DNA of 64,000 nt. Source: an uncultured Victivallales bacterium (lineage in GTDB: Bacteria; Verrucomicrobiota; Lentisphaeria; Victivallales; UBA1829). The stretch covers positions 1,957-65,956 of the forward strand of contig CAYWZD010000001.1 of NCBI GenBank assembly GCA_964462755.1, in the 5' to 3' direction. This document shows, piece by piece, positions 1,375-53,729 of the stretch (position 1 is its first letter; the number at the start of each line of letters is the position of its first letter). The position numbers were made by a program, and so were the translations under genes. The notes below the pieces were generated by a model. The model had not been told where the DNA came from and searched no databases. It saw only the letters and a list, made by a program, of their open reading frames with translations.

Positions 1375-4300
1375 TTATGGCCGGTTCTGAAAGGGAGGAA
1401 CCGGAATCCGGATTCCCGCCGTCAGAATCATGAAATCATTTTTCCCGAGTCTGACTCGGCCGCCGGGGCATTCCTCGCCCGTCTCGGCATTGCAGAAACG
1501 TGTCCCCGGAGCGAGGCCGAGTTTCTTTGCATCTGCGGTGAAGGCAAAATGTTTTTCTTCGCCGGAATTGCCGAAGATCAGCAAGACCTTCCCCGGACGG
1601 CGGTACGTTGCGAAAGTCACCCCTTCCGGGACTCCGGCGATCGCCCCGTCCGTCTCATAATAAGGAACGTATTTGCAATCTGGTTCCCAGATTCGGAATG
1701 CGGCGAGGATAGCGTATGTCCGGTAGAGCGTGGGACGGTGCATCCCGGCATCCGGCGGCATTCGAAGCCACGGTTTGAGATCGTGCGGAAGCATCACGGA
1801 CAATGCGCTCCGGGTGAGCTGTTCGAAAGTGCCGCCATCCCAAGTTTTCTTGTCGATTTTGTTACGGACGATTCCGTCCAGCACGACCCCTTCCGTCCCG
1901 ATCTGGGTGCCGAGCGATTCCGCACGGACGAAGTCATCGGGGAACCGCTTCTGGAAAACCTCTTCCCCGTAATGGTCCTCCCAGTCAAGGGTGCTGGTCG
2001 CGAAAGAGAAAACCGGAACGATCAAGGCATTGGTCATATGAACCTGAAGGAATCGCGGATTCAGGCCTTTTTCATACTGCATGACAGCAGCGCGTTTAAC
2101 CAGTTCCCGCATCTGGAGAAGTCCCGTCTGCGCGTGAAGGATTCCCTCCTCGTCCACTTTTGCCGCCGTATCGGGGTTCCGGCAGGTGAAGAAAAACATG
2201 TCATCGAAGTAAAGTCCTTCCAGCCCCGCATTCAGTTCGTCCCGATAAACGGCAAGGATGTAGTCCATATAGCTTGGGACATAGAACATCCGGCTGGCTC
2301 CGATGTAGTGGGACGGCTGGGAAATCCATTCGGACTTGAAATACTGCACGCCCTCGTCCTTGTATCCGGAAAGACTCGGATCGGAATATCTGACCGGCAG
2401 CGCGGGGCCCTGGAGAATTTTCGCGTCATGGATATAACTTTTCCGGCAGGAAAAATACCATCGGACATAGCTTTCCCTGCCGACATCCGGCAGATCGGAA
2501 TACTCTTTCGACACCTGATTCTTGTGACGATCGTCCCATTTCATTACTTCATTTTCGATTCCGATGTCCCGCCCCGTTTTATATTGACGGACCACGAAAC
2601 GGTACAAATCCCAGTCATCTTTGTAAGGACGCCGCTCCCATGTATTGGCGAATCCCATTGCCGGAGCATGAATCACGCAGATTTTCTTCATGTCCGGAAG
2701 GGCATTGGAAAAATAGGTCTGAAAATATTCCCTCCATTCGCCGCGATACGTTTTGACCGGCGTCGCATGGAGTCCGAAAGCCAGACGGTGCCCGTTCCCG
2801 AGCCGGACCGGACGGTTGATGAAGTCCGCTTCCAGAAACAGCTTTCCCTGTCGCCGGACAATCCGGACGGCGGGATCTTTTTCCGACAGTTTCATCCCGT
2901 AGGAATCCTGAAAGAAAAGACTCAGTCCGCGCTTTTCCGCTCCCAGCCACACATACGGGACAAACTGGGGGAGGACCGTGAGTTCGCCTTTCAGCGTCGG
3001 ACGGTGCAACAGGGTTCCGTCCCAGACGGTTCCCTGCCCGCCCGGCACTTTTCCGGACGGATTCCGGCGGATGGTGTCCGCTGCGATCACGTGAAAAAGC
3101 GGCGCTTCCGCATCCTCCAGAGGGATGACCAGAGTCAGCTTCTCCACCACTTTCCCCGCCACGTTTTCCAGACACAATTCGTTCCAGTAGAATCCGTCAT
3201 ATTCCAGCCGTCCCCTGGATGTCAGCGCCATCCCCTCCGGAGAAACCGCCTTCGATTCGATTTCCGCACAATAGCCGTCGCCCCGGACCGTAATGGCGGG
3301 AACTTTTCCTTCCAGACGGTAATTCTTCCCGCCGACCCGCAGTTCGTAATGCATCGGCTCCGCGAGCATTTCCCGTCCAAGACACTGAAGTGACTTGAGA
3401 AGTCCGTCTCCTCCAAACTCGTATCTCCGCAGAATGACTTCAAGCGCATTGTTCTTGCGGACGATTCCTTTGAATGGAGGAAGAATGATCTCCTTCTTTC
3501 CAAACGAATTGTTCTGCCACGGAAATGTTTTCTTTTCCAGAACCAGCACATTTTCGATGATTTTCCGCTTCCCGTCTTCCATTTCGAAACACAGCGATAC
3601 GGGATACCGTCCCGCGACGGGCGGAGTCCGGATCATTCCATTCCAATCGCCGTTTTTCTTTGACAGCGGATCACTTTTTCCGGCGCAGAGGGCCGTTACG
3701 CTCCGGACTTTCCGGTTCCCGGGGACGGCCAGATTGAGCCGGGCCGAATTCATGGAAGGATACTGGAAGCATTGACCGAACCCGAATTCCTTCAGATCGA
3801 ACTCATGGCTCGGAGGAATCAGACCGGAGGTGCTGCCGCGCTTTGCATAAAAACAGCGATGGAAAAACATCCGGCCGTCGGCGCAATCCCGGGCCGTGAC
3901 CTCCAGCGAGTAGAGGTTACGCCCGTTGACGCCGTATTCAAACGAGAGCGTTCCCGGTTTGGAAAACGTTCCGGATGCCAGTTTCAGAATTTGACCGCTG
4001 TCGTTCCTTGCGGCATGCTCCTTGAGAACAGCGTCGACACGGATTTTCTTCCCGGGAGGCAGAAACCCCACCCGGATTTCCGGAGACCAGAAACCATCCT
4101 GTATATTTCCGGTCCGGACAATCTGGACGGCGGGAGTCTCTTTCCGGAGATTGAATTCCAGCAGGGTCGAAGGATGAAAGTAGTTGGAGGTCGAGTTCAG
4201 GGCGGATGCCCCGGTTCCGGACCAGTTCCGTCCGATATTCATCCGGATTTTCTCCGAGGGAGAACCGATGGACTTGCGGGGAATGCGGAACTCGATCTCC

Positions 4301-4827
4301 CACCACCCGCTTTTGGCTTCACTGCCAATCCTCAGTCCGGGACAGTCCCATGTCAGGTCAAACGAATGCGGAACCCGTGTGAATCTCCGGTCGAAAACGA
4401 CCCCGCTGCTGTTGGCGATGATGTGATATGCTGTATTGGAATCGGAATCGCTCTGAAGGACCAGTTCAATGGAGTCGTCGCTGTAGACATCCCCGTCCCG
4501 CTGCCGTGCGGCCGAGGTCAAGCCTCCGCCCGGATCGTTGTTCTTCGCCATGCTGCGGACCGCCACATACAGATTCTCATCATCGGCGCAAAGATAAACA
4601 TATCCCTCTTTTCCGCTGAGCAGCAGCCCGTCGAAAAGCTGCACAAAACCAGTGGTGCAAAGACTTTTCGACCATTCCCCCGGACGGATTGCGCCGTCTA
4701 TGACGGGAGCCTCTTCCCGTCCGATCAGCGGAATGTCCGTGAAATCGGCGGAAAGAATTTTCCCCGCCCCCGCCCAGAACAATAAAACCAGCATCCATGC
4801 GGCTTTTTTCAAAGGAATGCTTCCCAT
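1375..4827 (-). CDS. large secreted protein (1150 aa) with an N-terminal CBM9/DOMON-like carbohydrate-binding module; catalytic function unknown
   Basis: Signal-peptide-like N-terminus MGSIPLKKAAWMLVLLFWAGAGKILSA. The module PVIDGAIRPGEWSKS...LYVAVRS...YSDDSIELVL...YHIIANSSG resembles family-9 CBM-like domains. The gene starts 3 nt after the stop of the pseudopilin-like gene. Confidence 0.85.
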   Translation of the reverse strand: MGSIPLKKAAWMLVLLFWAGAGKILSADFTDIPLIGREEAPVIDGAIRPGEWSKSLCTTGFVQLFDGLLLSGKEGYVYLCADDENLYVAVRSMAKNNDPGGGLTSAARQRDGDVYSDDSIELVLQSDSDSNTAYHIIANSSGVVFDRRFTRVPHSFDLTWDCPGLRIGSEAKSGWWEIEFRIPRKSIGSPSEKIRMNIGRNWSGTGASALNSTSNYFHPSTLLEFNLRKETPAVQIVRTGNIQDGFWSPEIRVGFLPPGKKIRVDAVLKEHAARNDSGQILKLASGTFSKPGTLSFEYGVNGRNLYSLEVTARDCADGRMFFHRCFYAKRGSTSGLIPPSHEFDLKEFGFGQCFQYPSMNSARLNLAVPGNRKVRSVTALCAGKSDPLSKKNGDWNGMIRTPPVAGRYPVSLCFEMEDGKRKIIENVLVLEKKTFPWQNNSFGKKEIILPPFKGIVRKNNALEVILRRYEFGGDGLLKSLQCLGREMLAEPMHYELRVGGKNYRLEGKVPAITVRGDGYCAEIESKAVSPEGMALTSRGRLEYDGFYWNELCLENVAGKVVEKLTLVIPLEDAEAPLFHVIAADTIRRNPSGKVPGGQGTVWDGTLLHRPTLKGELTVLPQFVPYVWLGAEKRGLSLFFQDSYGMKLSEKDPAVRIVRRQGKLFLEADFINRPVRLGNGHRLAFGLHATPVKTYRGEWREYFQTYFSNALPDMKKICVIHAPAMGFANTWERRPYKDDWDLYRFVVRQYKTGRDIGIENEVMKWDDRHKNQVSKEYSDLPDVGRESYVRWYFSCRKSYIHDAKILQGPALPVRYSDPSLSGYKDEGVQYFKSEWISQPSHYIGASRMFYVPSYMDYILAVYRDELNAGLEGLYFDDMFFFTCRNPDTAAKVDEEGILHAQTGLLQMRELVKRAAVMQYEKGLNPRFLQVHMTNALIVPVFSFATSTLDWEDHYGEEVFQKRFPDDFVRAESLGTQIGTEGVVLDGIVRNKIDKKTWDGGTFEQLTRSALSVMLPHDLKPWLRMPPDAGMHRPTLYRTYAILAAFRIWEPDCKYVPYYETDGAIAGVPEGVTFATYRRPGKVLLIFGNSGEEKHFAFTADAKKLGLAPGTRFCNAETGEECPGGRVRLGKNDFMILTAGIRIPVPPFQNRP

Positions 4828-4830
4828 GTC

Positions 4831-5565
4831 TCAGTCCCTGTCCCAATAGTTGTTTGCGGCCCCGGAATTTGTGGTTTTCCCATTGTCGAGCACCCCCGAA
4901 TAATAACTGATTCCGAGCTGTTTCTGATTCGAGGCGTTCCCCTCCGCCCAGAGAATGTTGCAGGTTCGCCCGTGGCGGTAAAAGGGGATGTTGTCGTTCG
5001 TGGGCGGATTCGTCTGCCAGGAATAAGCGATATACCACCCTTCCTCCCCGGTGGAACTCCCCGTCTTATAGGCGGAATCCACCAGCAGGACAGTGGCGGA
5101 CGGTTTCCGGATATTCTGTATTTTCGGCGGTTTGATCTGTCCCCACGCTCCGCCGTAGTAGGAGGTGAACGTTCCGCCCAGATAACAGGCGTTGTATCCG
5201 TAAATTCCGCCGGTAAAGCTCTCCACGCTGATCCGGTTCCCGGCAGGGTCCGACGGACAGCGCAGCATGTGACGCGTGCTTTTCCAGTTGACCGGTTTGA
5301 AATATCCGAGCGCCAGCAGCATCTTTCCCCAGGGATACTGGGTGGTCAATACCGAATCGTGTACCGGAGGAAAGTAGTCATTCTGGTCCCCGATATACTG
5401 ATGCATCACTATTCCCGCCTGTTTCTGGTTGTTTGTGCAGGCAATCGTCTGAGCCCGGATTTTCGCCGCATTCAGCGCAGGAAGAAGCATCCCTGCCAGT
5501 ATCGCGATGATTGCAATAACGATAAGAAGCTCTATCAGCGTAAAACTGTTCCCGTTTCGTTTCAT
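4831..5565 (-). CDS. prepilin-type N-terminal cleavage/methylation domain protein, H-X9-DG family (DUF1559-like), with a variant H-X9-EG motif
   Basis: N-terminus [35 protein letters not shown]. The C-terminal motif is RHGRTCNILWAEGN (His, nine residues, then EG). A GGAGA RBS lies upstream of the ATG at 5565. Confidence 0.9.
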   Translation of the reverse strand: MKRNGNSFTLIELLIVIAIIAILAGMLLPALNAAKIRAQTIACTNNQKQAGIVMHQYIGDQNDYFPPVHDSVLTTQYPWGKMLLALGYFKPVNWKSTRHMLRCPSDPAGNRISVESFTGGIYGYNACYLGGTFTSYYGGAWGQIKPPKIQNIRKPSATVLLVDSAYKTGSSTGEEGWYIAYSWQTNPPTNDNIPFYRHGRTCNILWAEGNASNQKQLGISYYSGVLDNGKTTNSGAANNYWDRD

Positions 5566-5568
5566 GGT

Positions 5569-6099
5569 TTATTCTCCTTTTTCCGTGATTGAACATCTGA
5601 AATCGCTGAGCGTCACTTCCGAACCGCTCCTTACCTCCATATAAAGAAGCATCTTCGCAATTCCTTTTCCTCCGGACACCGCTTGCAGGGGCATGGCGAT
5701 TTCCACATTTTTCCGGACAGACGACACCGGAAGCCATTTTCCGCATACCCCCAGCGGTTTTCCGTTCTCCGTATAGAGATAGGCCCCCGCGGAAAACGAT
5801 CCTTTTCCGGAAACGTCCGCTCTGATTTTCAGCAAGGCGCCTTCCCGCGCGGGAAAATACTGATAAGTAAAAACAGCACAGGCTTTTCCAGCCGGGGTCA
5901 GTGTGATTCCGGGATTGCCGTCGACCATGACCGGCGTCATGCTTCCGAGCGGCTGGAAACTTTTATCGGGATTCAGACGCCAGCCCGATACACAGCCTTT
6001 TCCATCCGCGGTGAAACGGTTGTCGACTTCCAGAAATTTCTCCCCCGCGGCAAGGCTGAACATTCCCGCCGCGAAAATCACTGCCATAAAACTTCTCAT
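5569..6099 (-). CDS. small secreted protein (176 aa), beta-sandwich/CBM-like by composition
   Basis: Signal-like N-terminus MRSFMAVIFAAGMFSLAAG. The start overlaps the LacI stop (ATGA-type overlap at 6096..6099). The body is Gly/Val/Ser-rich and beta-type. Confidence 0.65.
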   Translation of the reverse strand: MRSFMAVIFAAGMFSLAAGEKFLEVDNRFTADGKGCVSGWRLNPDKSFQPLGSMTPVMVDGNPGITLTPAGKACAVFTYQYFPAREGALLKIRADVSGKGSFSAGAYLYTENGKPLGVCGKWLPVSSVRKNVEIAMPLQAVSGGKGIAKMLLYMEVRSGSEVTLSDFRCSITEKGE

Positions 6100-7124
6100 A
6101 CCGTCATCTCCTCCTTATTTCTGCCGCTGTTATTCCGGGAACAAGGAAACCGCCCCGGTTCCATGCAGGACTCCCGTACAATGAAGTCCGGGACCAGTTT
6201 CCGTATCATGACCTTTCTTTGCTCCGGAAATTCCAGCGTGTTCATCAGCATTCCGACCAGCCTCTCCGAAGCAATATCCGGATTGATTCCATAAGTGGTA
6301 AGCGGAGGCAGCATCAGCGGAGAGTCGTCCGTGTTGTCGAACCCGATCACGGAGACATCTTCCGGGATGCGGAGTCCCGCCTTCGCCAAGGCATGATACA
6401 GGCAGAACGCCACGTTGTCGTTGTGCGCGATGACGGCCGTGATTCCCTTCGCTTCGGGGGAACGGAAAAAGTTCAAGGCGGTCTCCATGATCGTCCGTTT
6501 TTCCGATATCCGCGGAATGAGTATCTTCGTAAGACCGAGTTTCCGCTTTTTCGCATACCCGTCGGTAAAGTCGCACCGGGGGCCTTCCGCCACGCCGAGA
6601 TAGGCGATTTTCGTGTGCCCGAGTTTCTTCAGATAATCGATGCTGTTCCGGACGGAGAATTCCACATCCACGGTCACTGTCGAATTCTTTCCGGACGAAT
6701 CGCCCCATACAACATAAGGAATCCCTTCCGTTTCCAGGGAAGCGTGCGCATACCAGGAGATGATCCCATCCACATTCTGGGAAAAGATTCTTTCCATGAC
6801 CTCGTCGATTTCGTCATCCGCGTGCCAGAAGGAAAACAGCGGCATATATCCGTGACTTTGCAGGGATTTCTGGACCGCCAGAATCATCCGGGAGTAGTAC
6901 GGATTCACCGGTTCCGGCATGGCAACCCCGATGGAGCCGTGCTTTTCCGTACGGAGAGCCTTTCCGAAAAGATTCGGACGATAGTTGTTTTCTCTGGCCA
7001 GGTCGCGGATCATTTTCTGCCTGGCAGGAGAAATCCGTCCGTCGGCTTTCCCGTTCAGGACAAGGGAAACGGCGCAGATGGACATCCCTATTTTCCCCGC
7101 CAATTCTTTGATTGTGATTCCCAT
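6096..7124 (-). CDS. LacI-family transcriptional regulator
   Basis: HTH MGITIKELAGKIGMSICAVSLVLNGK plus a periplasmic-binding-protein-like C-terminal domain. The track ORF begins at a TTG (7130); I prefer the ATG at 7124. Confidence 0.9.
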   Translation of the reverse strand: MGITIKELAGKIGMSICAVSLVLNGKADGRISPARQKMIRDLARENNYRPNLFGKALRTEKHGSIGVAMPEPVNPYYSRMILAVQKSLQSHGYMPLFSFWHADDEIDEVMERIFSQNVDGIISWYAHASLETEGIPYVVWGDSSGKNSTVTVDVEFSVRNSIDYLKKLGHTKIAYLGVAEGPRCDFTDGYAKKRKLGLTKILIPRISEKRTIMETALNFFRSPEAKGITAVIAHNDNVAFCLYHALAKAGLRIPEDVSVIGFDNTDDSPLMLPPLTTYGINPDIASERLVGMLMNTLEFPEQRKVMIRKLVPDFIVRESCMEPGRFPCSRNNSGRNKEEMTV

Positions 7125-7143
7125 GCGCAAGCCCTTCAGAACG

Positions 7144-7194: not shown

Positions 7195-7663
7195 GGTTTA
7201 AAAATAAAAAAAACAATTTTTTTGCGAAAAGCCAAGGGAAAAAGACAATCGCCCTGCATATATCAGACCCGAATACAGCCTTATCATTTCACAGTCACAT
7301 CTTCCGAAAACATTTCGGAATCTGAACGCCCATATGCGGGACCGCTTTGGAAAATATAAAGCATTCCAAGTTCAGGTGTATTAAGATTCGACCTTTTTCC
7401 AATTCGGATAGGAGTTCCGCAAGACCTGATGCAGGGTGTCCGTTGATACGGCGGAGAACGTCTTTGTGATCGGTCAGTGCGTTGAGGTCCATGTACGGGC
7501 CAGGCTGCCCCAGACTTTTATGACTGTCATTCTGACAGACCATGAAAAAAGTTCGAGAAAGCTTTTTTGCAATCGGTCGTAATGTTTTGTCAAAATTCAG
7601 GAAAAAGCAGGACTTGCCCAGCGTTGATTTTCAGCGGGTAGCAAATTGACTCGTTGACTTCAT

Positions 7664-7698
7664 GCCATTTCCTCTCGGTCGGAGAGCGATGGCTTTTT
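7664..7698 (+). terminator. intrinsic-terminator-like hairpin with a T5 tract (plus strand)
   Basis: GCCAT-ttc-CTCTC ggtcg GAGAG-cg-ATGGC followed by TTTTT. There is no annotated plus-strand gene upstream. Confidence 0.4.
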
Positions 7699-7853
7699 GC
7701 ACCCCAAGGTTGGATTGTGAACGTAACACGTCAAGATTTTTAGTCTCAAAACGGCGAAAGTTTGACCTGGAGTCCGAACGGAAAAACGGATGTCCGTCCG
7801 GGATACGAACCGTTCGGTAAACCATGATGTTTCACCGGTTGATGAAACGTTAG

Positions 7854-7889
7854 CCAACGGGATCTGCCTGAGATTCCTCTTGGTTTTTT
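7854..7889 (+). terminator. intrinsic-terminator-like hairpin with a T6 tract (plus strand)
   Basis: CCAA-c-GGGATCT gcctg AGATTCC-tc-TTGG followed by TTTTTT, about 11 bp including one G-U pair. It lies 18 nt upstream of the candidate -35 box of the LacI/GRE operon. Confidence 0.4.
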
Positions 7890-7906
7890 GAAGACATCCG
7901 ATTCCC

Positions 7907-7934
7907 TTGAAAATGTGGAAAGAACTATTATATT
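7907..7934 (+). promoter_or_regulatory. candidate sigma70-type promoter, TTGAAA-16-TATATT, for the LacI/GRE operon
   Basis: Sequence ccTTGAAAatgtggaaagaactatTATATTcc lies 25 nt upstream of the ATG at 7959, with a GGGAG RBS in between. Confidence 0.4.
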
Positions 7935-7958
7935 CCTTCTATATCGGGAGCGGTATTA

Positions 7959-8948
7959 ATGCAGAAAGTCACAATCAGCGATGTCGCACATGAGGCTGGA
8001 TGTTCCAAAGCCACGGTTTCCTATGTGATCAATCGGACACGGCCGATCAGCGAACAAGTGCGAAAAAAAGTTCTGGATGCGGCGGAGCGTCTTGGGTATC
8101 ACCCTTCCGGAAAACGGAATACACCGCAGAGACGTTCCATTGCCCTGCTGGTCCGCGGAGATTTCCGGGTCGGGGACGAACCGGCGTTTACATTTCATCA
8201 TGAGATTCTCCGCAGAGGTTATATCCCGCAGATTTTCATGTGCGGACCGGATGTGGAATCCTTGAAACTGGTACTCGCCGCGATTGGAAACGACCGGAAT
8301 GTCGCCGGCGTCATCAATGCCGTCCCGACGATTGGAAGCTTGAACCTGCTGAAATATTGCCGGGAACTCCCTTCTTTTGTCTTTGCACGCAACGGATGCA
8401 TGCTTTGCTCCGTCCACTGCAATTATACACATCGAATGCGTCTGGCGCTTTCGCATCTGCATTCCCTCGGACACCGTAAAGTCATATTTTTCATAGACTC
8501 TTCCACCGTGGATAAGCCGCAGATGATCAGCAATATTACATTTCTCCAAGAATATTCTCAATCGGTTGAAATGGGAACGCGAATTGTAACACATCCGGAA
8601 CAGCGGGACAATCGGGCCCTTTTCCCGAAGCTGGATAAAGTATGGAAGGATGGCTTTACCGCGGTTCTTGCATGGAATGATTTTTTTGCCGAAATGATAT
8701 ACCAATGGGCTTATGAACGGAACATTCGAATTCCGGATGCTCTGTCGATCCTGGCTTTCTGCGATGAATTCAGGGCACAGGGATTTGCTCCGCCGCTGAC
8801 TTCCGTGCAGATTCCGCTCGAGAAGCTCGTGCATTATACCGTGGATGCGCTTCTCGCACGGATCGAAGACCGCAAAACGGAAGAAGTCCTTCTGCATCCT
8901 TTCCTTTCTCCCGGTGCCTCCACCGGTCCCGCATTGAAAAAACATTGA
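7959..8948 (+). CDS. LacI-family transcriptional regulator
   Basis: HTH MQKVTISDVAHEAGCSKATVSYVINRTRPISEQVRKKVLDAAERLGYHPS plus a sugar-binding-type C-terminal domain. Confidence 0.9.
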   Translation: MQKVTISDVAHEAGCSKATVSYVINRTRPISEQVRKKVLDAAERLGYHPSGKRNTPQRRSIALLVRGDFRVGDEPAFTFHHEILRRGYIPQIFMCGPDVESLKLVLAAIGNDRNVAGVINAVPTIGSLNLLKYCRELPSFVFARNGCMLCSVHCNYTHRMRLALSHLHSLGHRKVIFFIDSSTVDKPQMISNITFLQEYSQSVEMGTRIVTHPEQRDNRALFPKLDKVWKDGFTAVLAWNDFFAEMIYQWAYERNIRIPDALSILAFCDEFRAQGFAPPLTSVQIPLEKLVHYTVDALLARIEDRKTEEVLLHPFLSPGASTGPALKKH

Positions 8949-8987
8949 ACGAAATCAGATTCTTTTCCATCTCCCCGCCGTTTTCTT

Positions 8988-9036
8988 GAAACCGGTTCGC
9001 TCCTTTGATATTTTATTTCTTCAAAGGAGCGGTTTC
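8988..9036 (+). promoter_or_regulatory. strong hairpin that sequesters the Shine-Dalgarno sequence of the activase gene
   Basis: GAAAC-(cggtt bulge)-CGCTCCTTTGA [tattttatttct] TCAAAGGAGCG-GTTTC gives 11 + 5 perfect base pairs. The 3' arm contains the AAGGAG SD (9024..9029), which ends 8 nt before the ATG at 9038. No U tract follows. Confidence 0.5.
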
Positions 9037-9037
9037 C

Positions 9038-13156: not shown

Positions 13157-13180
13157 CCTCTTATTACGGAAAAAAGCATT

Positions 13181-14419: not shown

Positions 14420-14479
14420 CGACGTTTCAGATCACCGTTTATTCTTGAATATCTCAACAAAAATAAAGGAAATGCAATC

Positions 14480-15565: not shown

Positions 15566-15573
15566 GGAGCCGG

Positions 15574-28080: not shown

Positions 28081-28126
28081 ACAGCAATAACAATAATAAT
28101 GACAGGCCGTTGGAAAAGGGATTGTA

Positions 28127-45120: not shown

Positions 45121-45846
45121 TTAGCGTGTCGTCTGTGTGAAAATATTCGGGTAAGCCACGGCGCTGATATAGGTCAGAAACCGGCTTGCCTCATAGGCAA
45201 CATAGGTTTTGTGTCGTGCGATAGAAGTTGCGGGAAACGCTTCGGCATGACCGTCGGCCATGATGCCGTTTGCAATCTGATTGTGCACAAGATAGAGAGA
45301 GCCGAAAGAATTCGGGGTGGACGTCTTGTAGGTCAGGAAATTGTGCCATTGCACATCCTGTTCAATGGAACGCACATCCCCTGCCAGAATGATTTGAGAC
45401 GGAGCGACAGGGTTGCCAAGCTGATCCGTCCTGTAATAAGCAGCGCGCAAATGAGCCCCGACGGTTCCCGTGGAAGGCGTCCCGTAGGTGCTGGCATAAT
45501 CCCAATCCCCGCCATAAACGGCGACAGGAGTCACCGGACAGCGGATGGACTTGATATTGTTCAGCATTCCGGAGCGCTTCAGTTTCAACCCCCAGTAAAC
45601 CTTGTTGTCAAGGTCGGTAATGCCGGCCACCCCGCAGAAGACCCAGTCGTCGTAAGAATCGCGGTAAAGCTGGAAGGCGAGTCCGGTCTGTTTCAGGTTG
45701 GAAGTGCAGCTGATGGCCTGCGCCTTTTGTTTTGCCTTGTTCAGAGCGGGCAGCAGCATTCCCGCCAGAATCGCGATGATCGCAACAACAACGAGGAGTT
45801 CGATCAATGTAAAACTCATGGCATTCCAAATTTTTCCGGCTTTCAT
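45121..45846 (-). CDS. prepilin-type N-terminal cleavage/methylation domain protein, H-X9-DG family
   Basis: [39 protein letters not shown] at the N-terminus. Canonical motif [13 protein letters not shown]. In-frame alternative starts exist at 45876 and 45819. Confidence 0.9.
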
Positions 45847-46069
45847 AACAGCGACCTCCCTGCAGAATGATTTCATGTTTTTCTGTTAATCAATTATACC
45901 AAAACGGAGAGGATTTGCAATTCGAACAAGCGGGGAAAATACTTTTTTTTTGAATAAGTTCAGAATTTCAGAGAATCTATTTGCCGGAGGAAGATTTCCC
46001 GAGGATATTGGATTTGACAGGAGGCTCATGAAAAACTATATTTTCAGGAGAACACAGGGAACCGGTAAA

Positions 46070-47203
46070 ATGAATATCGCTGCGACGAAAATCTACAGGA
46101 CCTTGCTGGGCAGAATCCGGGAAGGCGTCTATCCGCCCGGAAGCCGTCTGCCGTTCGAAAAGGAACTGGCCGCCTCATTCAAAACCAACCGGATGAACGC
46201 GAAACGGGCGGTTGAACGTCTGGCGGGGGAAGGACTGGCTGTCCGGATTCGCCGCAAGGGCTCCTTTGTAACATCATCCGGCGCCGTATCGGCTCAGGCG
46301 GAAGAATTGCTCTCCTTGAGTGAAAAGCGGGTCGTGTTTCTGTATTCGGAACATCCAACGAACATTCATTGGAACAAAGCCACGCTTCAGAGTTTCCGTG
46401 AATGCGCAGACAGCTTCGGGTATGACGTTCATTATGAGGCCGTGCCGATTGACCGGGGACGCGGCGCCCTTGCAGACATGATGCGTTCCATTGCCAGACT
46501 GCGTCCGGCGGGTCTTGTCATGTTTCTCGATAATTTTGAATATCTTTTCATGAGCGCGAATTCGGATCTCTTCGGACTTTTCACGTGTCCGGTAATATCC
46601 CTGAACCGCACGGGAGCCCCCATCTGCATCAAGGATATCATCACGATCGATCTGGACCATTACGGCGACGGAGTCCAGGCGGCGGAACTTCTGCTGGCGA
46701 ATCAGATTTCGGAAGTCATGTTTTACTATACAGAATCTTTTAAAGCACTTTCGTGGTTTCAGCAGCGCAGGGAAGGCATAGTAAAAACGCTGTCCTTTTC
46801 CGGAGTCAGAACGGAACTGTTTGAAGCAGGGCGTCACGATGCTTCCAGACTGAAGAATTTCGTGCTTAAAAACGGTCCCGGGAGCATGGTCGTCGCCATC
46901 AACAACGATCATGCCGAACAGATAGTCAAAATGCTTGCGCTTTCCAGTCTGGCCGCGGGAAAAGACTATCGATTGCTGGCTTTCGATGATTATCCGCCTT
47001 TTCACAAATACCGTCTGACCTCGTTCGGAATCGATACGGAACGTCTGGGGGTTCTTGCCGCCAAACTGATATGTTCCAATCGGCGGAATCGGGAAATGTC
47101 CGGAAATTGTTCCATCCGTGTGAAGTCGATTCTTTTCATCAGGGATTCCTTCCGTCCCGCCGTTCTCCCCGCGGATCTCCGGAATGGAATGGCAGACGCC
47201 TGA
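46070..47203 (+). CDS. GntR-HTH regulator with a LacI/PBP-like sugar-binding C-terminal domain (AraR-type architecture)
   Basis: MNIAATKIYRTLLGRIREGVYPPGSRLPFEKELAASFKTNRMNAKRAVERLAGEGLAVRIRRKGSFV followed by a ~300-aa PBP-like domain. The track ORF from 45950 starts at a TTG. ATG options are 46028 and 46070. Confidence 0.8.
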   Translation: MNIAATKIYRTLLGRIREGVYPPGSRLPFEKELAASFKTNRMNAKRAVERLAGEGLAVRIRRKGSFVTSSGAVSAQAEELLSLSEKRVVFLYSEHPTNIHWNKATLQSFRECADSFGYDVHYEAVPIDRGRGALADMMRSIARLRPAGLVMFLDNFEYLFMSANSDLFGLFTCPVISLNRTGAPICIKDIITIDLDHYGDGVQAAELLLANQISEVMFYYTESFKALSWFQQRREGIVKTLSFSGVRTELFEAGRHDASRLKNFVLKNGPGSMVVAINNDHAEQIVKMLALSSLAAGKDYRLLAFDDYPPFHKYRLTSFGIDTERLGVLAAKLICSNRRNREMSGNCSIRVKSILFIRDSFRPAVLPADLRNGMADA

Positions 47204-47311: not shown

Positions 47312-48535
47312 TTACTTAAGAGGAAAATTCAACCGTTTCAGGAGGTCTGCTTTCGTCAGAACTTTCCCTGCCCCATTCCGGAAAATGATCCGGAGATGAG
47401 GATCATTCACTTCTTTGCGGAAGACGAGTTCCTGTGCAAATTCTTTTTCAGGAGCAAGTGTTCCCGGTGTAAAATGTATTTTTTCCACAGGATTACCGTT
47501 GTCCAGCAGTTCAGCCTCTGCGGTTACGTTCTTCAGAATGGTGATTCCGCCGATAGAGAGAATCGCCTTTTTCTTTCCGGACCATTCACAGGAAATGACC
47601 GCATTTTTGTCCAGATAGTCCACGGGATGTGTCCATTCCCGGACTAGAAGTGTCTGATGATGAAATCGCTTCGTTCCCTGCGGGAGTTCCCGTCCCCCGT
47701 AGACCGTTTCGAGACTCAGGTCTCCTGCCTTGTTCAGCCCGATATAGTTGTAAAAAAGACCGTCTGGCGAAAGTTCTTCCAGCGGCGTAATAGAGCCGAG
47801 AAGAAGTCCGTTCACAGCATAAGCCCGCCACGGTTGAGCGGGCAGAAACATATCGCTCATGCTCTCCGGCATGACAACCGCCATTCGGCTCACAATACAG
47901 TCATAAGGGACCTGCTGCATCAGTGTCCCGGAACGCTGATGCTTTTCCTCAGGCTTCCGGGTGGGCAGATAAAGCCGGACTTTATTGTGGTCGCCTGTCC
48001 GGTCCGGATCGATCATGATATGAGACCAGTAGGAAACCGTATTCTTTTTGATATCCTTCTGAGGGACCCCCGTCAAAATCGTTTCAATTTCCATAGCGGC
48101 AGAACCAGTCCGGAGGGTCATTACCCTTTCAAGAAGTCCGGCCCCTTTCCGGCAGCGGACCGAAAGGGAACACTCTTCCGGACTTTTTTTCAAAATCCTG
48201 ACCTGATACACCACATACTGTTTAATGGAGCCTTCTTCCCAGATCCAGTCTTCATACCCGGCAAAGTTGCTTCTGGAAACAACGAAAACCCCTTCTGTCA
48301 GTTCCAGCGCCTTATACTCCAGCGCCGGAAAGCAGTGCCGCTCCCCCTTTTTCAGCATGAACTCGGCAATGCGTCCGCTGGAGGACGGCGTTATGACCGC
48401 ACGGATGTATTCATTTTCCAGGACAAATACCTCTCGTCCGGAGTCATCTTCTTTTGTATCCAGCGTACATTGCGCCCGGAGAGGCAGAGCAATCCCGCAG
48501 CAGACGGCAAAAAGGAACAGACAGAATTTTTTCAT
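47312..48535 (-). CDS. secreted hypothetical protein (407 aa), mutarotase-like beta-sandwich by eye
   Basis: Signal peptide MKKFCLFLFAVCCGIALPLRA from the ATG at 48535, 1 nt after the upstream stop. The segment VFVLENEYIRAVITPSSSGRIAEFMLK recalls the aldose-epimerase-like fold. Confidence 0.75.
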   Translation of the reverse strand: MKKFCLFLFAVCCGIALPLRAQCTLDTKEDDSGREVFVLENEYIRAVITPSSSGRIAEFMLKKGERHCFPALEYKALELTEGVFVVSRSNFAGYEDWIWEEGSIKQYVVYQVRILKKSPEECSLSVRCRKGAGLLERVMTLRTGSAAMEIETILTGVPQKDIKKNTVSYWSHIMIDPDRTGDHNKVRLYLPTRKPEEKHQRSGTLMQQVPYDCIVSRMAVVMPESMSDMFLPAQPWRAYAVNGLLLGSITPLEELSPDGLFYNYIGLNKAGDLSLETVYGGRELPQGTKRFHHQTLLVREWTHPVDYLDKNAVISCEWSGKKKAILSIGGITILKNVTAEAELLDNGNPVEKIHFTPGTLAPEKEFAQELVFRKEVNDPHLRIIFRNGAGKVLTKADLLKRLNFPLK

Positions 48536-48536: not shown

Positions 48537-49355
48537 TTATTTTCCTGGAATAAAATCAGTTTTGCAGCGGACGTTATCAGAAATCCGCAATTCGTCAATC
48601 AGACAGGGCAGCGCATAGTTCCCGGCGCCGTAACTGCCGCCGATGAAGAGCCGGTTGGCTGGTTCTTTCAGAATGCCGTCGAAACGGGTATTCTGGGAAT
48701 TCACCAGTTTCCCGTCCACAAAGAGTTGGATTTGTTTCTTGTTCCAGGTCAAAGCGACATGATGCCACTCTTTTTCAGTCCATGACTCAATGGGGCATTT
48801 GCCCCGGACCGCCCGAATACTATTTTTGTTCCAGTCGGAGCCCTTGAATTCCCGGGGAGTGTCTTTGTCATTGATTTCGAATTCCAGATACCATTTCGTT
48901 TTAATGGTTGACCAGTGGTTATACACCAGACGAAGGGTCGCCCATTCCGCTATCTGTCCAAAGTTATCGCCTCGTGCCAGAAGAAAGAGAACGGTAAAAA
49001 GTTCAGCCTTGGGCATTTGGTTTTTTCTTGCTTCTCCCAGTTTGACCCACATTTCCACCGTGCCGGTCTTTGCATTGTAATTCCCTTTGGGCTGAGCCTG
49101 CAGGAACTTGTACGGGCCGTTTATTTCGGAGGGGCTGACGCATTCCGCATTGCGAACGATCAAGGCTTCTCCGGCCTTTCCTCCCTTGTTTTCCGTTATG
49201 GCGGCATGTCCTTTCAGAGAGGTGCCCCCAGCGGCGCTGTCCGCTTCCAGTTTCTGGTCGAAAGAACAGTAGAAAAGGGTGTGTTCATCGATCCCATCCG
49301 CGCAGACTTCAAGTCCCGCACAGAAGGCGCACATGGTCAAAAATTTTTTAATCAT
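48537..49355 (-). CDS. secreted LamG/concanavalin-like domain protein (272 aa)
   Basis: Signal peptide MIKKFLTMCAFCAGLEVCA. LamG hallmarks GTVEMWVKL...EWHHVALTWNKKQIQLFVDGKLV...LFIGG...LIDELRISD. Confidence 0.8.
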   Translation of the reverse strand: MIKKFLTMCAFCAGLEVCADGIDEHTLFYCSFDQKLEADSAAGGTSLKGHAAITENKGGKAGEALIVRNAECVSPSEINGPYKFLQAQPKGNYNAKTGTVEMWVKLGEARKNQMPKAELFTVLFLLARGDNFGQIAEWATLRLVYNHWSTIKTKWYLEFEINDKDTPREFKGSDWNKNSIRAVRGKCPIESWTEKEWHHVALTWNKKQIQLFVDGKLVNSQNTRFDGILKEPANRLFIGGSYGAGNYALPCLIDELRISDNVRCKTDFIPGK

Positions 49356-49390: not shown

Positions 49391-52087
49391 TCACATTCCG
49401 GGCCAATTGGCCCCTTTGCCTATTCCGCCTTTCGTCCGCATTTCCTGTGTGGCCGGGTCCCGGGCATAGGCAGATCCGGGATCAGCGAATTTGCCGAAGT
49501 AGAAATACTTCCGGTCCAGAAGACGCATCACTTTGAAGGTAAGTTCAAACCGATCTTTTGCCGTGGGGCCTGAGATCAGCAGAGACTTGTCCGGAGAAAG
49601 CGTAACCCCCGGATTCCCGGTAATAAAACGGATGGCTCCGGGGACCGGATTTGTCCCCGGCATGATCTGCGGAGCCCCCATTGTCCCGCCTGTGACTTTA
49701 TCATAAAATTTGAAATACTCCGCCAGATGCTTTGCCGCGTACCGGTCATATTTATCAGCGTTGGTGGGAAGGTAGATGAGCGCTTTCCCGAATGGGAAAT
49801 CCAACAGTTCCTTTACGCTTAACCGATAGATCGAGGACTTCCAGATAAATTCCAGTTTTCCGGAAGAGGCAGACTGAAGAGTCCAATGGTCCGTGCCTTC
49901 AGCCACCGTTTTTCCGTTGAAGCGGATCTCCACACCTTCACATGCTTCCGGAAGGCGGAAGGTGATTTTTCCGGAAACCGGTTTCCCAGCAGTAAATTCC
50001 ACCGTGGAGGTTCCCCCGGTAAAATCCGCTTTAAAGAAGGCTTTCGCACGGACATCTTTCACGCCGGCGGGGAAGGCCATCACCGGACGGAACAGGAAAA
50101 TCTCCTTGCTGGACATTCTTTTTTCCAGCTTTGTAAAACGTTCGTTCAATGTATTATCCAGCGCTTTCCCATCCATGCAGGCAAAGGCATAGTCGTCATT
50201 TCCAAGATACTTGCAGTCCACCGTCGCAACCGCTTCTTTCGCCTTCAGGGACTGATTGCCGATGAAGAAGCAGGTGTTCAGGCCTTTGCCGTATCGGCTG
50301 AACCAGAGTTTTCCGGATACACGGATCGCCGGAATTGTCTGATATCCCTGATTGATAACCTCCTGTGCAATGGGCAGATACCGAACAATCTTTTCACAGC
50401 CCCATGCGCCGTTGGGATATGGGTAATAGGCATAGCGGAACATGAAAAGAATGACATTGTCCCGGAGGGCATTGTAGACTTCACGAATCTTTTCCGGTGA
50501 ATAATCACGCCATGGCATGACGGTTCCGTATTTTTCCGCATCGAAGTCATTACAGTAGTTGAACGGCTTGTTTCCGCACATGAATCGCATCACCTCCTGA
50601 TCCCCCGGAGAAGTGAAGGCATCGGAGAAGGAGCCGTCGTTGTTGAGTGCGTCAGAACGGATGGAGGTATAGTAAAGGCTCTTGCCGCCGCCCGCCATAT
50701 TGCCTACCGTCCCAAGAATATAGGGTCCTTTCCGGAGGGAGTGGACCACATCCATCCACATAGCGGTTGCTACTGCCTCCCTGACAAAGACCCCCTCTTT
50801 GTCCCAGGCGCGTCCCGGAGATGTCTGGACCCCCGGCTGTTTCCGGGCAATCCCCGGCGCAGCGGAACAGTCAAACGCAAACCCTCGAACATCAAGATTA
50901 TCATTGATCTGCTTTATCGCCTTGACTGTATCCTCGCCAAACTTGTTATTCCAACCCCAGATCCGGCACTCTACACTTTTCCCGAAGACCCATGGCGTGA
51001 TCCGGTTACTTGTGTTTTTATCCGTAATCCAGCAGTCCGGATAGGAATGTTTCATCAATTTTTCATCGCAGAAGGTAATGATGTAGTAAAAGAATGCCTG
51101 ATTGTATTCTTCGTGCATGTCAATAGCCTTTTTCCGGCGAGCGATGAATTCGTCATAGTCGGGGATTTCCAGAGTGTTTGTATGAAGATTCTTGTCTTCG
51201 GTCACTTCCCGCCGTCCATACCAATCTCCGGTGGCATGGAATGGCGCATATCCCCAGACCCAAGAACCGCTCTGACGTCGTACATATTCCCGAACAATAT
51301 CGCCACGGTTCCAAAGTTTTTCATAGTAGATCCGATCTCCGCTCAAAGATCCCTTGGTGAGGCGGGGGTCCACCTTCGGATTGATTGCATAGTTTCCGTC
51401 GGAAGCATCCTGAAATTCCGCAACGGCATTGCGATAGCCATAATCCGGTACAAAATCAAAGGCAAGGAACTCGACTTTCTCACTCTTCTTCGGGTCCACC
51501 ACAAGTTTGACGCCATAGTAGACTCTGCGGGACCCGCCATTGACCTGGACTCCATTTTCTATATGGTTGAAAATCTGCATCGGTTCAATTCCAATGGCAA
51601 AGCCTTGCTTTTCTGTATATACACACCCCATTGGGAAAGAGTTGTAAAGTTCACTATTCTCTGAATTACGGGATACCTTTTCCAGAAGCTGACGGCCATT
51701 CCAATACCGGAACCCCGTTTCAGGAAGTCCCATATTTTGACGGACCAACAGAAAAAGCTGATCGTCGGAAAGGTTTTTCACCGTGACGATATTCCGCAGA
51801 ATTTTACCGGTATTACACCATGAACTTGTGATCTCCATGGCAGGGGAAACGGTTTTATATCGGAGAATTGTATTTCCATTCATCCGGCTGATTTCCGGTT
51901 TTCCAAGCGTAACGATGGCATTTCCGGCCTTGCCATTCATGATCTCCAACGGAATCATGGTTGGAAAAGCCGTTTTTCCCGAAGTCTGATAAAGAACTTT
52001 TCCGTCCGGCTGGAAGATCGCCTCAAGGGCCATCAGTCCGGTGGCGGTCAGCATCATTGCCGCTGCTGTCAATAGTTTTTGTTTCAT
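49391..52087 (-). CDS. giant secreted protein (898 aa) of unknown function
   Basis: Signal peptide MKQKLLTAAAMMLTATGLMA from the ATG at 52087. No motif I recognise. It is flanked on both sides by LamG genes. Confidence 0.85.
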   Translation of the reverse strand: MKQKLLTAAAMMLTATGLMALEAIFQPDGKVLYQTSGKTAFPTMIPLEIMNGKAGNAIVTLGKPEISRMNGNTILRYKTVSPAMEITSSWCNTGKILRNIVTVKNLSDDQLFLLVRQNMGLPETGFRYWNGRQLLEKVSRNSENSELYNSFPMGCVYTEKQGFAIGIEPMQIFNHIENGVQVNGGSRRVYYGVKLVVDPKKSEKVEFLAFDFVPDYGYRNAVAEFQDASDGNYAINPKVDPRLTKGSLSGDRIYYEKLWNRGDIVREYVRRQSGSWVWGYAPFHATGDWYGRREVTEDKNLHTNTLEIPDYDEFIARRKKAIDMHEEYNQAFFYYIITFCDEKLMKHSYPDCWITDKNTSNRITPWVFGKSVECRIWGWNNKFGEDTVKAIKQINDNLDVRGFAFDCSAAPGIARKQPGVQTSPGRAWDKEGVFVREAVATAMWMDVVHSLRKGPYILGTVGNMAGGGKSLYYTSIRSDALNNDGSFSDAFTSPGDQEVMRFMCGNKPFNYCNDFDAEKYGTVMPWRDYSPEKIREVYNALRDNVILFMFRYAYYPYPNGAWGCEKIVRYLPIAQEVINQGYQTIPAIRVSGKLWFSRYGKGLNTCFFIGNQSLKAKEAVATVDCKYLGNDDYAFACMDGKALDNTLNERFTKLEKRMSSKEIFLFRPVMAFPAGVKDVRAKAFFKADFTGGTSTVEFTAGKPVSGKITFRLPEACEGVEIRFNGKTVAEGTDHWTLQSASSGKLEFIWKSSIYRLSVKELLDFPFGKALIYLPTNADKYDRYAAKHLAEYFKFYDKVTGGTMGAPQIMPGTNPVPGAIRFITGNPGVTLSPDKSLLISGPTAKDRFELTFKVMRLLDRKYFYFGKFADPGSAYARDPATQEMRTKGGIGKGANWPGM

Positions 52088-52106
52088 GTTTTTCTCCTGA
52101 TGTATG

Positions 52107-52925
52107 TTATTGAAGAAGTGAATCAGCAACGTTGTCTGTGTCAAGAATTTGAAAATCGTCCAGAACGCAGCGGAATAGCGGTTGTTGACGGCGCATGACA
52201 CCGCCTACCGCAAGCTGGCGCGCTCCCGGAACCAGCGAGGGATCATTCAAAGGACAGGTCCCTCTGGCGGCAAGTTTGCCATCCAGGTAGAGACAACGGT
52301 CTTTGCCGCCGTTTGTCCAGGAAACCGCCGCATGATGCCATTCTCCGTCTTTCCAGCGGACGGGAGCAGAAATCATATATTTTTCATGGTCGGGAGAAAC
52401 AAAACCGCCGAGATCATATTTGACTCTGCCCCGGTATTCGGCAAACAAAAATTTCAAAACTCCTTTTTTCCGCTCCAGTGCAAGGAATGCATAAGCATTG
52501 CATCCTTCCAGAGCCCACTCAGCACCGGGAAGGACCACCCAGTCAGTCACTCCGGCGAAGGGCAGCAGGAAATCCCGTCCATCCTCCGGAATGCCGCACA
52601 ATTTAACATAAAATCCAATTCGCCCTTTTTGCGAGAAGAAGTTCCCTTGGGTCTTGAAAAGAAGAGGAGAATAGAGAACCTGACTGCCGTTTTCCGTTTC
52701 CGTCATGCCGGGGGTCATATTGAGACCCGGTGTTCCGTTACGCCCGTCCTTTCCTTCAGTCATCCCGGCGGTGATGAGAGTCTCCCCGCTGCCGTCCCGG
52801 GATTCCGCGCAAACCGTTTCATTGAAATCCGCCCTGAGCAAGACGTGTTTTTCTGTATCCGAAGCAGACAGTTCAGAAAGAATCGCCAGCAGCAATAGGG
52901 ATGTCAGCAATTTTTCGATACGCAT
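52107..52925 (-). CDS. secreted LamG/concanavalin-like domain protein (272 aa), a divergent paralogue of 48537..49355
   Basis: Signal peptide MRIEKLLTSLLLLAILSELSA. LamG hallmarks GRIGFYVKL...EWHHAAVSWTNGGKDRCLYLDGKLA...LAVGG...VLDDFQILD. It has the same length (819 nt) as the other LamG gene. Confidence 0.8.
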   Translation of the reverse strand: MRIEKLLTSLLLLAILSELSASDTEKHVLLRADFNETVCAESRDGSGETLITAGMTEGKDGRNGTPGLNMTPGMTETENGSQVLYSPLLFKTQGNFFSQKGRIGFYVKLCGIPEDGRDFLLPFAGVTDWVVLPGAEWALEGCNAYAFLALERKKGVLKFLFAEYRGRVKYDLGGFVSPDHEKYMISAPVRWKDGEWHHAAVSWTNGGKDRCLYLDGKLAARGTCPLNDPSLVPGARQLAVGGVMRRQQPLFRCVLDDFQILDTDNVADSLLQ

Positions 52926-52967
52926 AGAACTTATCTCCTCCTTTTAAAGAAATTGAAGAAGTATCTT

Positions 52968-53729
52968 TTATTGTTTGTAGAAGAAGCAGACATTGTAAAA
53001 ACCTACATCATCAACTGTATTTTTATAAGTTGCGCTGAGTTCTGCTCCGCTCATCGGTTGGACGTGTCCGTCGATCATCAACAGATGCGCCCGTTTAGAA
53101 TGGGCAAGCAAAGAACCCGGGTAGTTTCCAAAGGAACCTCCGTTCAGCGGAGAAAGGCGGGCAAGGTCTTTGTCCAGTTCGATACAATGCGCTTGTATTG
53201 CTTTGCTTCCACTCCAGGAATCAGAAATCCACCCGAAGGAGGAGGGACGAGTGATCGCCCTCACCAAAATACCGTACCGGTTGCCCGAATACATCTGATA
53301 ATTAACCGTCTGAACTTTCACATTGCTGATCCCGTACCATGAGAACATTCCGTAAGAAGCCAGTTGAAGATTTGTGGTTCCTTTATTCTCAATATCCGGA
53401 CAGGTGAGCTGAGATTTCTGGAGTTTTGCCCAGATCGCTGATCCACTGCCGTAGCCCCACTTACCGGTCTTGCTCAAGTATCCCGTTTCAAAGAGACCAT
53501 GGGCCCAGGAGCTTGCGGCATAGAAACCGCGGTCGGGGACGGAATAGCCGTTATTTTCATCCGCATAGTTATTGAGGGCGAGAAAGACCTGTTTCTGCCG
53601 TCCGATGCAATCAGCGGCTTTTGCCTTGTTTCTGGCATTGTTCAGTGCGGGCAGGAGCAATCCAGCCAGAATCGCAATGATGGCGATGACAACCAGGAGC
53701 TCGATCAGTGAGAAAGTTTTTTTCTTCAT
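52968..53729 (-). CDS. prepilin-type N-terminal cleavage/methylation domain protein, H-X9-DG family
   Basis: [36 protein letters not shown] at the N-terminus. Canonical motif [13 protein letters not shown]. The track start at 53840 is an upstream extension. Confidence 0.9.

Follow-up and report, generated by a model that had tools for sequence, protein, structure and literature searches.

Why should genes for small pilin-like proteins recur beside secreted carbohydrate-active enzymes in a bacterial genome? The question is raised by a 64,000-nucleotide stretch of DNA from an uncultured Victivallales bacterium (contig CAYWZD010000001.1; the whole stretch is called the window below), which open reading frame (ORF) listing and family scans identify as a carbohydrate-utilisation region of a Lentisphaerota genome. 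It carries four gene groups, here units (i) to (iv), each with one gene for a prepilin-type protein of the H-X9-DG/DUF1559 kind. Bacteria of the Planctomycetes-Verrucomicrobia-Chlamydiae (PVC) superphylum are major glycan degraders; to our knowledge they lack Sus-type systems, and the route by which their large secreted enzymes exit the periplasm or are retained on the cell has not been settled. The H-X9-DG/DUF1559 proteins are among the largest PVC paralogue families, with 68 copies in Planctopirus limnophila, two of them essential; their function is unknown (PMC10632474), and the literature searched describes no cassette context for them. The subunits of the glycan-binding fibres of Planctomycetes are also unknown (PMC5394234). 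The present analysis supports the pilin-like gene as a non-random, conserved part of Lentisphaerota cassettes, and these cassettes are best fitted by a polysaccharide-utilisation locus (PUL) whose hallmark is a pilin-like gene, not SusC/D.

A six-frame motif scan of the window finds exactly four prepilin ORFs of the FTLIELL type (4831-5565, 16854-17633, 45121-45846 and 52968-53729), the same four pilin-like genes that a preliminary description of this DNA had listed. That description had also placed a secreted protein behind each of them and, in all four units, the gene directly 3′ of the pilin-like gene indeed encodes a signal peptide, after gaps of 3, 44, 15 and 42 bp in units (i) to (iv). 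Given signal peptides on 10 of the 35 non-pilin genes of the window, four such followers out of four have a chance probability of 0.004; moreover, 8 of those 10 non-pilin proteins fall inside the four units. Family scans agree with the contents first assigned to the units (LamG_3 domains, an FAD oxidoreductase, a GH106-like 1018-aa protein and a GH4 enzyme, with LacI, AraC and hybrid GntR/periplasmic-binding-protein (GntR/PBP) regulators), and the combination of a sugar-type regulator, secreted LamG or carbohydrate-active-enzyme (CAZyme)-like proteins and cytoplasmic sugar enzymes supports their reading as polysaccharide-utilisation cassettes. The notion of the same cassette occurring four times holds for the architecture and fails for the genes, since each unit has its own enzymes and identity between the pilin heads is only 22-25%. 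Likewise, the fixed lead position attributed to the pilin-like gene breaks down in unit (i) and in many loci with a co-directional regulator upstream. The large secreted proteins, once called giants of unknown function, are instead remote glycoside-hydrolase-like proteins: two are GH123-like, one combines DUF6259 with LamG, and one has a GH36/31/101-like fold.

Other genomes (loci L001 onwards) also have cassettes (i), (iii) and (iv), each kept together as a unit in an unrelated neighbourhood. In particular, cassette (iii) recurs in Lentisphaerae bacterium ADurb.Bin242 (L001) with its divergent GntR/PBP regulator, pilin, GH123-like enzyme and 863-aa protein at 80, 83, 83 and 81% identity to the window, respectively, and in L002-L004 with the first three genes only, at 42, 55 and 45% identity; the 863-aa protein is absent from the L002 cassette. 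Cassette (iv) appears in a rumen Lentisphaerae metagenome-assembled genome (L085/L086) with all five genes at 52-64% identity (59% for the pilin of L085), beside an Fe-hydrogenase operon and without a regulator. Cassette (i) is found amid housekeeping genes in L091/L092 as a LacI regulator, a 230-aa pilin with an H-X9-AG motif and a 1151-aa GH123_N protein, at 28, 36 and 39% identity. Further, L089 and L001 each hold one more cassette, L002 holds a second, and L087 has three within 20 kb. The cleanest minimal example for experiments is an isolated trio at 8848-13603 of L088, where a GntR/PBP regulator, a 230-aa pilin-like protein and a 949-aa PL8 lyase lie amid housekeeping genes on a 5.87-Mb contig. 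Across L002, L088 and L091, the minimal module comes down to three genes, for a sugar regulator, a pilin-like protein and a single secreted enzyme. Other arrangements also occur: L021 alternates pilin, enzyme, pilin, enzyme, and L008 carries two pilin genes and two DUF4838 enzymes.

The linkage was quantified by a scan of GTDB species genomes, which covered 80 PVC loci, 27 of them independent Lentisphaerota loci. In Lentisphaerota, the next non-pilin gene is co-directional, encodes at least 500 aa and has a signal-peptide-like N-terminus after 11 of 31 pilin genes as opposed to 12 of 206 controls (odds ratio 8.9, p = 1.5e-5), numbers that are approximate because the crude ORF caller and signal-peptide call misassigned some strands in the window itself; the Pfam-annotated loci back the direction of the enrichment. 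At least 14 of the 27 Lentisphaerota loci have a LacI, GntR/PBP or AraC regulator as upstream neighbour, versus a background of about 13% (p = 1e-6), and the downstream genes encode DUF4838, LamG, CBM4_9, CBM9, GH42, sulfatase, rhamnosidase, GH123_N and heparinase domains. Enrichment is not significant in the loci from Verrucomicrobia and Planctomycetota (5 of 55 versus 16 of 451, p = 0.07). The expectation that H-X9-DG genes precede secreted genes more often than chance is supported in the 27 Lentisphaerota loci and not beyond them, and the label of a PVC-type unit, which the preliminary description had used, is too broad. In Verrucomicrobia and Planctomycetota (L030, L042, L056, L063, L075, L082 and others), a small ORF of 120-190 aa often follows the H-X9-DG gene, and the two may form a different conserved gene pair.

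As a locus type, the cassettes share with the Sus-like PULs of Bacteroidota a substrate-specific, regulator-linked cluster with surface or secreted proteins that bind and cut glycans and with downstream sugar catabolism. The window has regulators of the LacI, GntR and AraC families together with secreted glycan-binding proteins and CAZymes (GH123-like, GH36-like-fold, LamG, GH4 and GH106-like). Unlike those PULs, the cassettes have a pilin-like gene as their hallmark, no SusC/SusD pair and no TonB-dependent transporter, and their regulators are cytoplasmic one-component proteins, not hybrid two-component systems or extracytoplasmic-function sigma/anti-sigma factors. No scanned ORF of the window matches a TonB-dependent receptor or SusD family and, as had been reported, none matches an ATP-binding cassette (ABC) transporter, type II secretion system (T2SS) or pilus-assembly family. 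The functional analogy to Sus once drawn for these units accordingly stands for the logic of the locus and falls for transport, there being no SusC/D-like pair. The full-text literature searched contains no description of a cassette of regulator, pilin and secreted enzyme.

The pilin-like proteins resemble the H-X9-DG/DUF1559 family (TIGR04294, PF07596) in their prepilin-type N-terminus, their length of 240-260 aa, their massive paralogy and restriction to PVC bacteria, and their C-terminal H-X9-DG motif, which is literal in units (ii), (iii) and (iv); it had been assigned to unit (i) as well, where it reads H-X9-EG. They differ from it in mostly missing the curated hidden Markov model (HMM) cut-offs, in the Glu for Asp of (i), and in lacking Gly or Ala at position -1 of the leader. 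All four pass PF07963 (21.4-31.8 bits, cut-off 21.2) and TIGR02532 (20.4-21.8 bits, cut-off 16.3) and carry F[TS]LIELL. On PF07596, a 268-position profile, (ii) scores 26.4 bits against a gathering score of 23.3 and the others 17.7-19.7, with matches that cover positions 2-44 only. On TIGR04294, whose 22-position model makes a weak test, (iv) reaches 13.1 bits against a cut-off of 19 and the others have no match; homologues named H-X9-DG by the Joint Genome Institute (JGI) likewise score just 14-15 bits. Because the HMM scores are marginal, yet homologues at 32-36% identity bear the JGI name H-X9-DG protein, the window proteins appear to be divergent members of the H-X9-DG superfamily. The family search gave at least 7958 matches; among the matches listed, the best homologue of the unit (iii) protein is that of ADurb.Bin242 (83% identity). 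The cassette (i) orthologues have lost the Asp of the motif (H-X9-EG in the window, H-X9-AG in the L091 copy at 7292-7984), and this Asp is therefore not essential in every subfamily.

The structure of these proteins separates into a conserved stem and a variable head. The AlphaFold2 (AF2) model of the unit (iii) protein (predicted local distance difference test, pLDDT, 86.4; predicted template modelling score, pTM, 0.81) has the pilin fold, with a long N-terminal helix (residues 14-64) on a mostly beta head. Its best PDB fold match is type IV pilin 6xxd, at a probability of only 0.89 and E = 0.2; PDB sequence and fold searches recover only the helix of type IV pilins and of GspG (5wda matches the family profile), and the head has no similarity to any PDB structure in either search. 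In 60 homologues, F+1 (F12), E+5 (E16) and H188 are invariant, N193 and D198 are kept in at least 90%, and a Cys pair is nearly invariant. In type IV pilins, the positions F+1 and E+5 mark processing, N-methylation and the packing of filaments. Between the window paralogues, the first 45 mature residues are 62-78% identical and the heads 22-25%. The stem DNA is 61-70% identical, with matches at 33-53% of third codon positions; this divergence rules out recent duplication or gene conversion behind the shared stems, which have therefore been kept by selection. Across orthologues, in contrast to paralogues, pilin and partner enzyme are about equally conserved (83 versus 83%, 55 versus 45%, 59 versus 64% and 36 versus 39% identity), orthologous heads thus diverging about as fast as the enzymes. 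Judged from these comparisons, the contrast has the apparent signature of a shared stem for assembly or processing with cassette-specific heads.

What, then, might such proteins do? We tentatively favour, at somewhat less than even confidence, the proposal that they are cassette-specific pseudopilins that link the co-encoded enzymes to a type IV filament or T2SS-like machine, shared among the cassettes and encoded elsewhere. The analysis shows the linkage of the genes, its enrichment and conservation, the contrast of stem and head and the pilin-like fold; cleavage, assembly and the ligand of the head are inferred. Each cassette would comprise a one-component sugar regulator, one prepilin-type H-X9-DG protein and at least one Sec-exported CAZyme-like or LamG protein, often with cytoplasmic enzymes that would act on the released sugars. 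The near-invariant stem (F+1, E+5 and the hydrophobic helix) would let a single machine handle all paralogues, and the divergent head would be specific for the co-encoded enzyme set; the head may pass the enzymes to the secretion machine or retain them at the cell surface, on a short fibre. A bolder version, in which H-X9-DG pseudopilins are cargo-specific adaptor pilins and the cassettes a Lentisphaerota type of PUL, with each enzyme set exported or displayed by way of its own pilin on a shared type IV machine that processes leaders without Gly at -1, in effect a display of enzymes borne by pili, is possible and somewhat doubtful.

Several observations weigh against the pseudopilin proposal. 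The window has no secretin, ATPase, platform or prepilin-peptidase genes within its 64 kb, and T2SS-type secretin, ATPase or platform genes are likewise absent from the cassette loci L001, L002, L085, L087-L089 and L091. The ratio of pilins to enzymes varies, unit (iv) having one pilin for four secreted proteins. A 41%-identical homologue of the unit (i) enzyme (L093) and a 40%-identical relative of the unit (iv) enzyme (L090) lie in loci without a pilin gene. The enrichment figures depend on the crude ORF caller, on heuristic calling of signal peptides and on control genes taken from the same loci. Finally, position -1 of the leader peptides (5545-5565, 16854-16901, 45814-45846 and 53715-53729) is S, N, S and T in (i) to (iv) instead of Gly or Ala. 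Compared over loci L005-L084, this residue is Gly in only 2 of 32 Lentisphaerota copies and Ala in none, with R, S, K, T or N in its place, and it is Gly or Ala in 56 of 59 copies from Verrucomicrobia and Planctomycetota; among close homologues, it is Gly in 3 of 59. F+1 and E+5 stay invariant despite the varied -1 residue. Because the residue is non-canonical, processing of the window pilins by a canonical prepilin peptidase is uncertain, and the lineage dependence would imply a peptidase of different specificity, or no cleavage.

Known secretion pilins offer partial precedents for the proposed pseudopilins. Type II secretion systems export folded periplasmic hydrolases, and their pseudopilin GspG is the best NCBIfam match of all four window copies, over the N-terminal helix and, in (i), to profile position 97. 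The window copies nevertheless reach just 25.2-33.0 bits on GspG (TIGR01710), mostly from that helix, below the equivalog cut-off of 88.85; their head is about twice as large and unrelated, their genes lie outside any gsp operon, and their paralogues are numerous, with a separate enzyme set for each. In the CofB-CofJ pair of enterotoxigenic Escherichia coli (PMC6048534) and the TcpB-TcpF pair of Vibrio cholerae (PMC9565799, PMC10120004), a type IVb minor pilin binds and exports a co-encoded secreted protein. The window cassettes share with these pairs a pilin with a specialised head encoded together with a Sec-exported soluble protein, on one strand and across gaps of 3-44 bp, with a signal peptide on the partner and with the pair kept in orthologous loci. 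The differences are that the CofB-CofJ and TcpB-TcpF pairs sit inside a pilus-assembly operon, with one pair per system, whereas the cassettes have no linked assembly genes, many pairs per genome and glycan-degrading cargoes, and binding by their heads is putative.

Nearly as likely as the pseudopilin adaptor is a glycan-binding fibre, in which lectin-like heads on a pilin-stem fibre, at the surface or in the periplasm, would capture the substrate on which the co-regulated enzymes act. This is the reading of the preliminary description; such a surface or fibre role stays putative, as the window has no assembly genes and the residue at -1 is non-canonical. The reading draws on the same data on architecture and conservation, and the divergence of heads between cassettes fits differing glycan specificities. 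Dextran-binding pili-like fibres occur in Planctomycetes (PMC5394234), and in Fibrobacter and Ruminococcus adhesion to cellulose is mediated by proteins like type IV pilins (PMC4704652). If present, such a fibre would resemble SusD/E/F in function or the archaeal bindosome. The bindosome of Sulfolobus (class III signal peptides, Bas system) also has pilin-type signals on sugar-acquisition proteins, and its sugar-binding proteins need a pilus-like assembly system (PMC3047682); those archaeal proteins are, however, true ABC-transporter binding proteins encoded with their transporters, whereas the window pilins have a small pilin-type head, no binding-protein matches and no linked ABC transporter. 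Further, the cassettes already hold dedicated LamG and carbohydrate-binding-module (CBM) domains for glycan binding, searches reveal no resemblance of the head to a solved lectin, CBM or binding protein, and the alternating pilin-enzyme pairs of L021 are awkward if there is one adhesin per glycan. No adjacent transporter is available for handover, save one distant sodium:solute symporter.

The loss of Gly or Ala at -1, specific to Lentisphaerota, would also suit an uncleaved accessory protein anchored in the inner membrane and facing the periplasm, whose prepilin motif has become a signal anchor and whose head serves as chaperone, scaffold or retention factor, with no filament at all. The lack of assembly genes near any cassette examined points the same way, and the many cytoplasmic glycoside hydrolases of the window suggest that oligosaccharides are imported and degradation is finished inside the cell. 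The invariance of F+1 and E+5, and the conservation of the first 45 mature residues far beyond the needs of an anchor, make this alternative unlikely. It is improbable that the genes have no specific link, and that abundant H-X9-DG and secreted CAZyme genes come to be adjacent through gene density or shared regulation alone. The family is huge, with four copies in 64 kb, some copies are solitary or face other genes (L005, L012, L017, L068), and the enrichment is not significant outside Lentisphaerota; the odds ratio of 8.9 was nevertheless obtained against control genes of the same CAZyme-rich loci, the pilin-enzyme pair is kept from 83% down to 36-39% identity while its neighbours change completely, and three-gene modules sit amid housekeeping genes. 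Lastly, a periplasmic solute-binding protein feeding oligosaccharides to a transporter, as the Pfam name SBP_bac_10 and one paper's term 'solute-binding proteins' for the family (PMC4807772) would have it, is highly improbable and was rejected on fold, since the AF2 model has a pilin-type helix with a small beta head instead of two lobes, no solute-binding protein is among the sequence or PDB fold matches, and no ABC or tripartite ATP-independent periplasmic (TRAP) transporter occurs in the window or related cassettes.

If the adaptor-pilin proposal is true, it gives a function to one of the largest uncharacterised PVC paralogue families, and the cassettes point to a possible new rule of cargo selection by type IV filament systems. 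The conserved trio of regulator, pilin and enzyme is a compact, directly testable unit. Moreover, the pilin genes can serve as a marker for new CAZyme families, for example the GH36/31/101-like family of the 898-aa protein in unit (iv) and the many families without Pfam assignment that lie behind pilin genes.

That 898-aa secreted protein (49391-52087, - strand) has a glycoside-hydrolase-like fold and no Pfam family or PDB sequence match. Its AF2 model (pLDDT 92, pTM 0.93) is a multidomain (beta/alpha)8 enzyme that Foldseek aligns to GH36, GH31 and GH101 structures at E = 2e-19 to 1e-13 and 8-12% identity, the best being 8x1b (E = 2e-19) and 4fnr (E = 5e-17) with a probability of 1.0. It has three close homologues only and 351 distant cluster representatives at E ≤ 1e-3, about 900 aa long; on the strength of the model, this group is a candidate for a new family of glycoside hydrolases. 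In L033, too, a distant relative lies behind a pilin-like gene. The other genes of unit (iv), all on the - strand, encode the 253-aa prepilin-type protein (52968-53729; N_methyl match, H-X9-DG at residue 210), two 272-aa secreted LamG proteins (52107-52925, Laminin_G_3 E = 1.5e-7, and 48537-49355, E = 1.3e-15, with L085 orthologues 54 and 55% identical, respectively), and a 407-aa secreted protein (47312-48535) with a signal peptide, no Pfam or NCBIfam match and a 52%-identical L085 orthologue.

In unit (iii), the GntR/PBP hybrid regulator (46070-47203, + strand; GntR E = 5e-15, Peripla_BP_3 E = 7e-9) is divergent from the genes that follow, all on the - strand. These encode the 241-aa prepilin-type protein (45121-45846; N_methyl match, H-X9-DG at residue 188), the 837-aa GH123-like enzyme with a signal peptide (42592-45105), an 863-aa cytoplasmic protein without a Pfam, NCBIfam or PDB match (40004-42595) and a cytoplasmic GH4 glycosidase (38631-39992; Glyco_hydro_4 E = 2e-47, Glyco_hydro_4C E = 5e-47). 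The 837-aa enzyme passes the gathering scores of GH123_cat (E = 6e-8, 32.8 bits versus 23.1) and GH123_N (E = 4e-6, 25.4 bits versus 22), and has weak phmmer matches to the solved GH123 beta-N-acetylgalactosaminidases 5l7v, 8q8h and 8p4l.

Unit (i) lies on the - strand and had been described as led by its pilin gene; it is instead preceded, in one run, by the genes for a LacI-family regulator (6096-7130; Peripla_BP_3 E = 2e-24, Peripla_BP_1 E = 1e-15, and a LacI helix-turn-helix match of E = 5e-6, just under its gathering score) and a 176-aa signal-peptide protein (5569-6099; no Pfam match; hydrophobic N-terminus MRSFMAVIFAAGMFSLAAG). The LacI gene and the 176-aa ORF share 4 bp, and 3 bp separate the end of the latter from the pilin gene. 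In L001, the second cassette runs pilin, 177-aa ORF, DUF4838; its 177-aa ORF thus follows the pilin, and this ORF lacks a signal-peptide-like N-terminus. The 244-aa prepilin-type protein (4831-5565; N_methyl E = 9e-8, TIGR02532 above cut-off) has its H-X9-EG motif in HGRTCNILWAEG. The 1150-aa secreted protein (1375-4827; signal peptide) had been termed CBM9-like, which has no Pfam support at E ≤ 0.01; it matches GH123_N above the gathering score (E = 6e-8), and its homologues carry PF19543. Sequence searches give no PDB match for this protein, for the 863-aa protein of unit (iii) or for the 1210-aa protein of unit (ii). The run continues with a 264-aa cytoplasmic protein (554-1348) without a significant Pfam match or a signal peptide, and with the 5′ part of a cytoplasmic gene (1-543) whose frame stays open to the window edge; by eye, its product resembles the N-terminus of the beta-helix protein encoded at 54026-55735.

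Unit (ii), on the + strand, encodes the 259-aa prepilin-type protein (16854-17633; SBP_bac_10/DUF1559 above its gathering score, N_methyl match, H-X9-DG at residue 217), the 1210-aa secreted protein (17681-21313; signal peptide), which carries DUF6259 (E = 2.5e-6) and, at its C-terminus, LamG (Laminin_G_3 E = 7e-6), both just under gathering score, a FAD-dependent oxidoreductase without a signal peptide (21323-22543; PF12831 E = 1e-55) and a 1018-aa cytoplasmic GH106-like protein (22545-25601; Glyco_hydro_106 E = 1.7e-16; no signal peptide). A PF12831 FAD oxidoreductase also lies beside a pilin-led cassette in the unrelated locus L087 (8537-9721), and may be a recurrent accessory gene of cassettes. 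Upstream, unit (ii) adjoins a LacI-headed operon (7959-16497, + strand) with a glycyl-radical enzyme and its radical-S-adenosylmethionine (radical-SAM) activase, two GFO/IDH/MocA oxidoreductases, a pectate-lyase-like protein and a secreted CBM9-like protein of 307 aa.

Taken as a whole, the promoter and terminator scans did no better than chance; they provide consensus-level evidence only, and just the sites inside intergenic gaps are given here. The best promoter-like sites lie in the gaps preceding (ii), (iii) and (iv): 16535-16563 within the 356-bp gap upstream of the unit (ii) pilin gene, a divergent pair at 45920-45893 (-) and 46014-46042 (+) in unit (iii), and 53916-53888 before the unit (iv) pilin gene. 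In unit (i), the promoter scan places none in the stretch from the LacI gene to the pilin gene.

Outside the units, the sodium:solute symporter (28127-30409, + strand) went unmentioned in the preliminary description; it is unusually long (760 aa), is the sole transporter among the scanned ORFs of the window and is preceded by a 655-aa protein of no family (the pair spanning 26113-30409). A GH95 protein and the beta-helix protein at 54026-55735 have no signal peptides. Between 55707 and 59157 on the - strand, the longest ORF of the GH95 gene shares 191 bp with that of the GFO/IDH/MocA gene upstream; the former starts with TTG, and the true GH95 start is probably further downstream.

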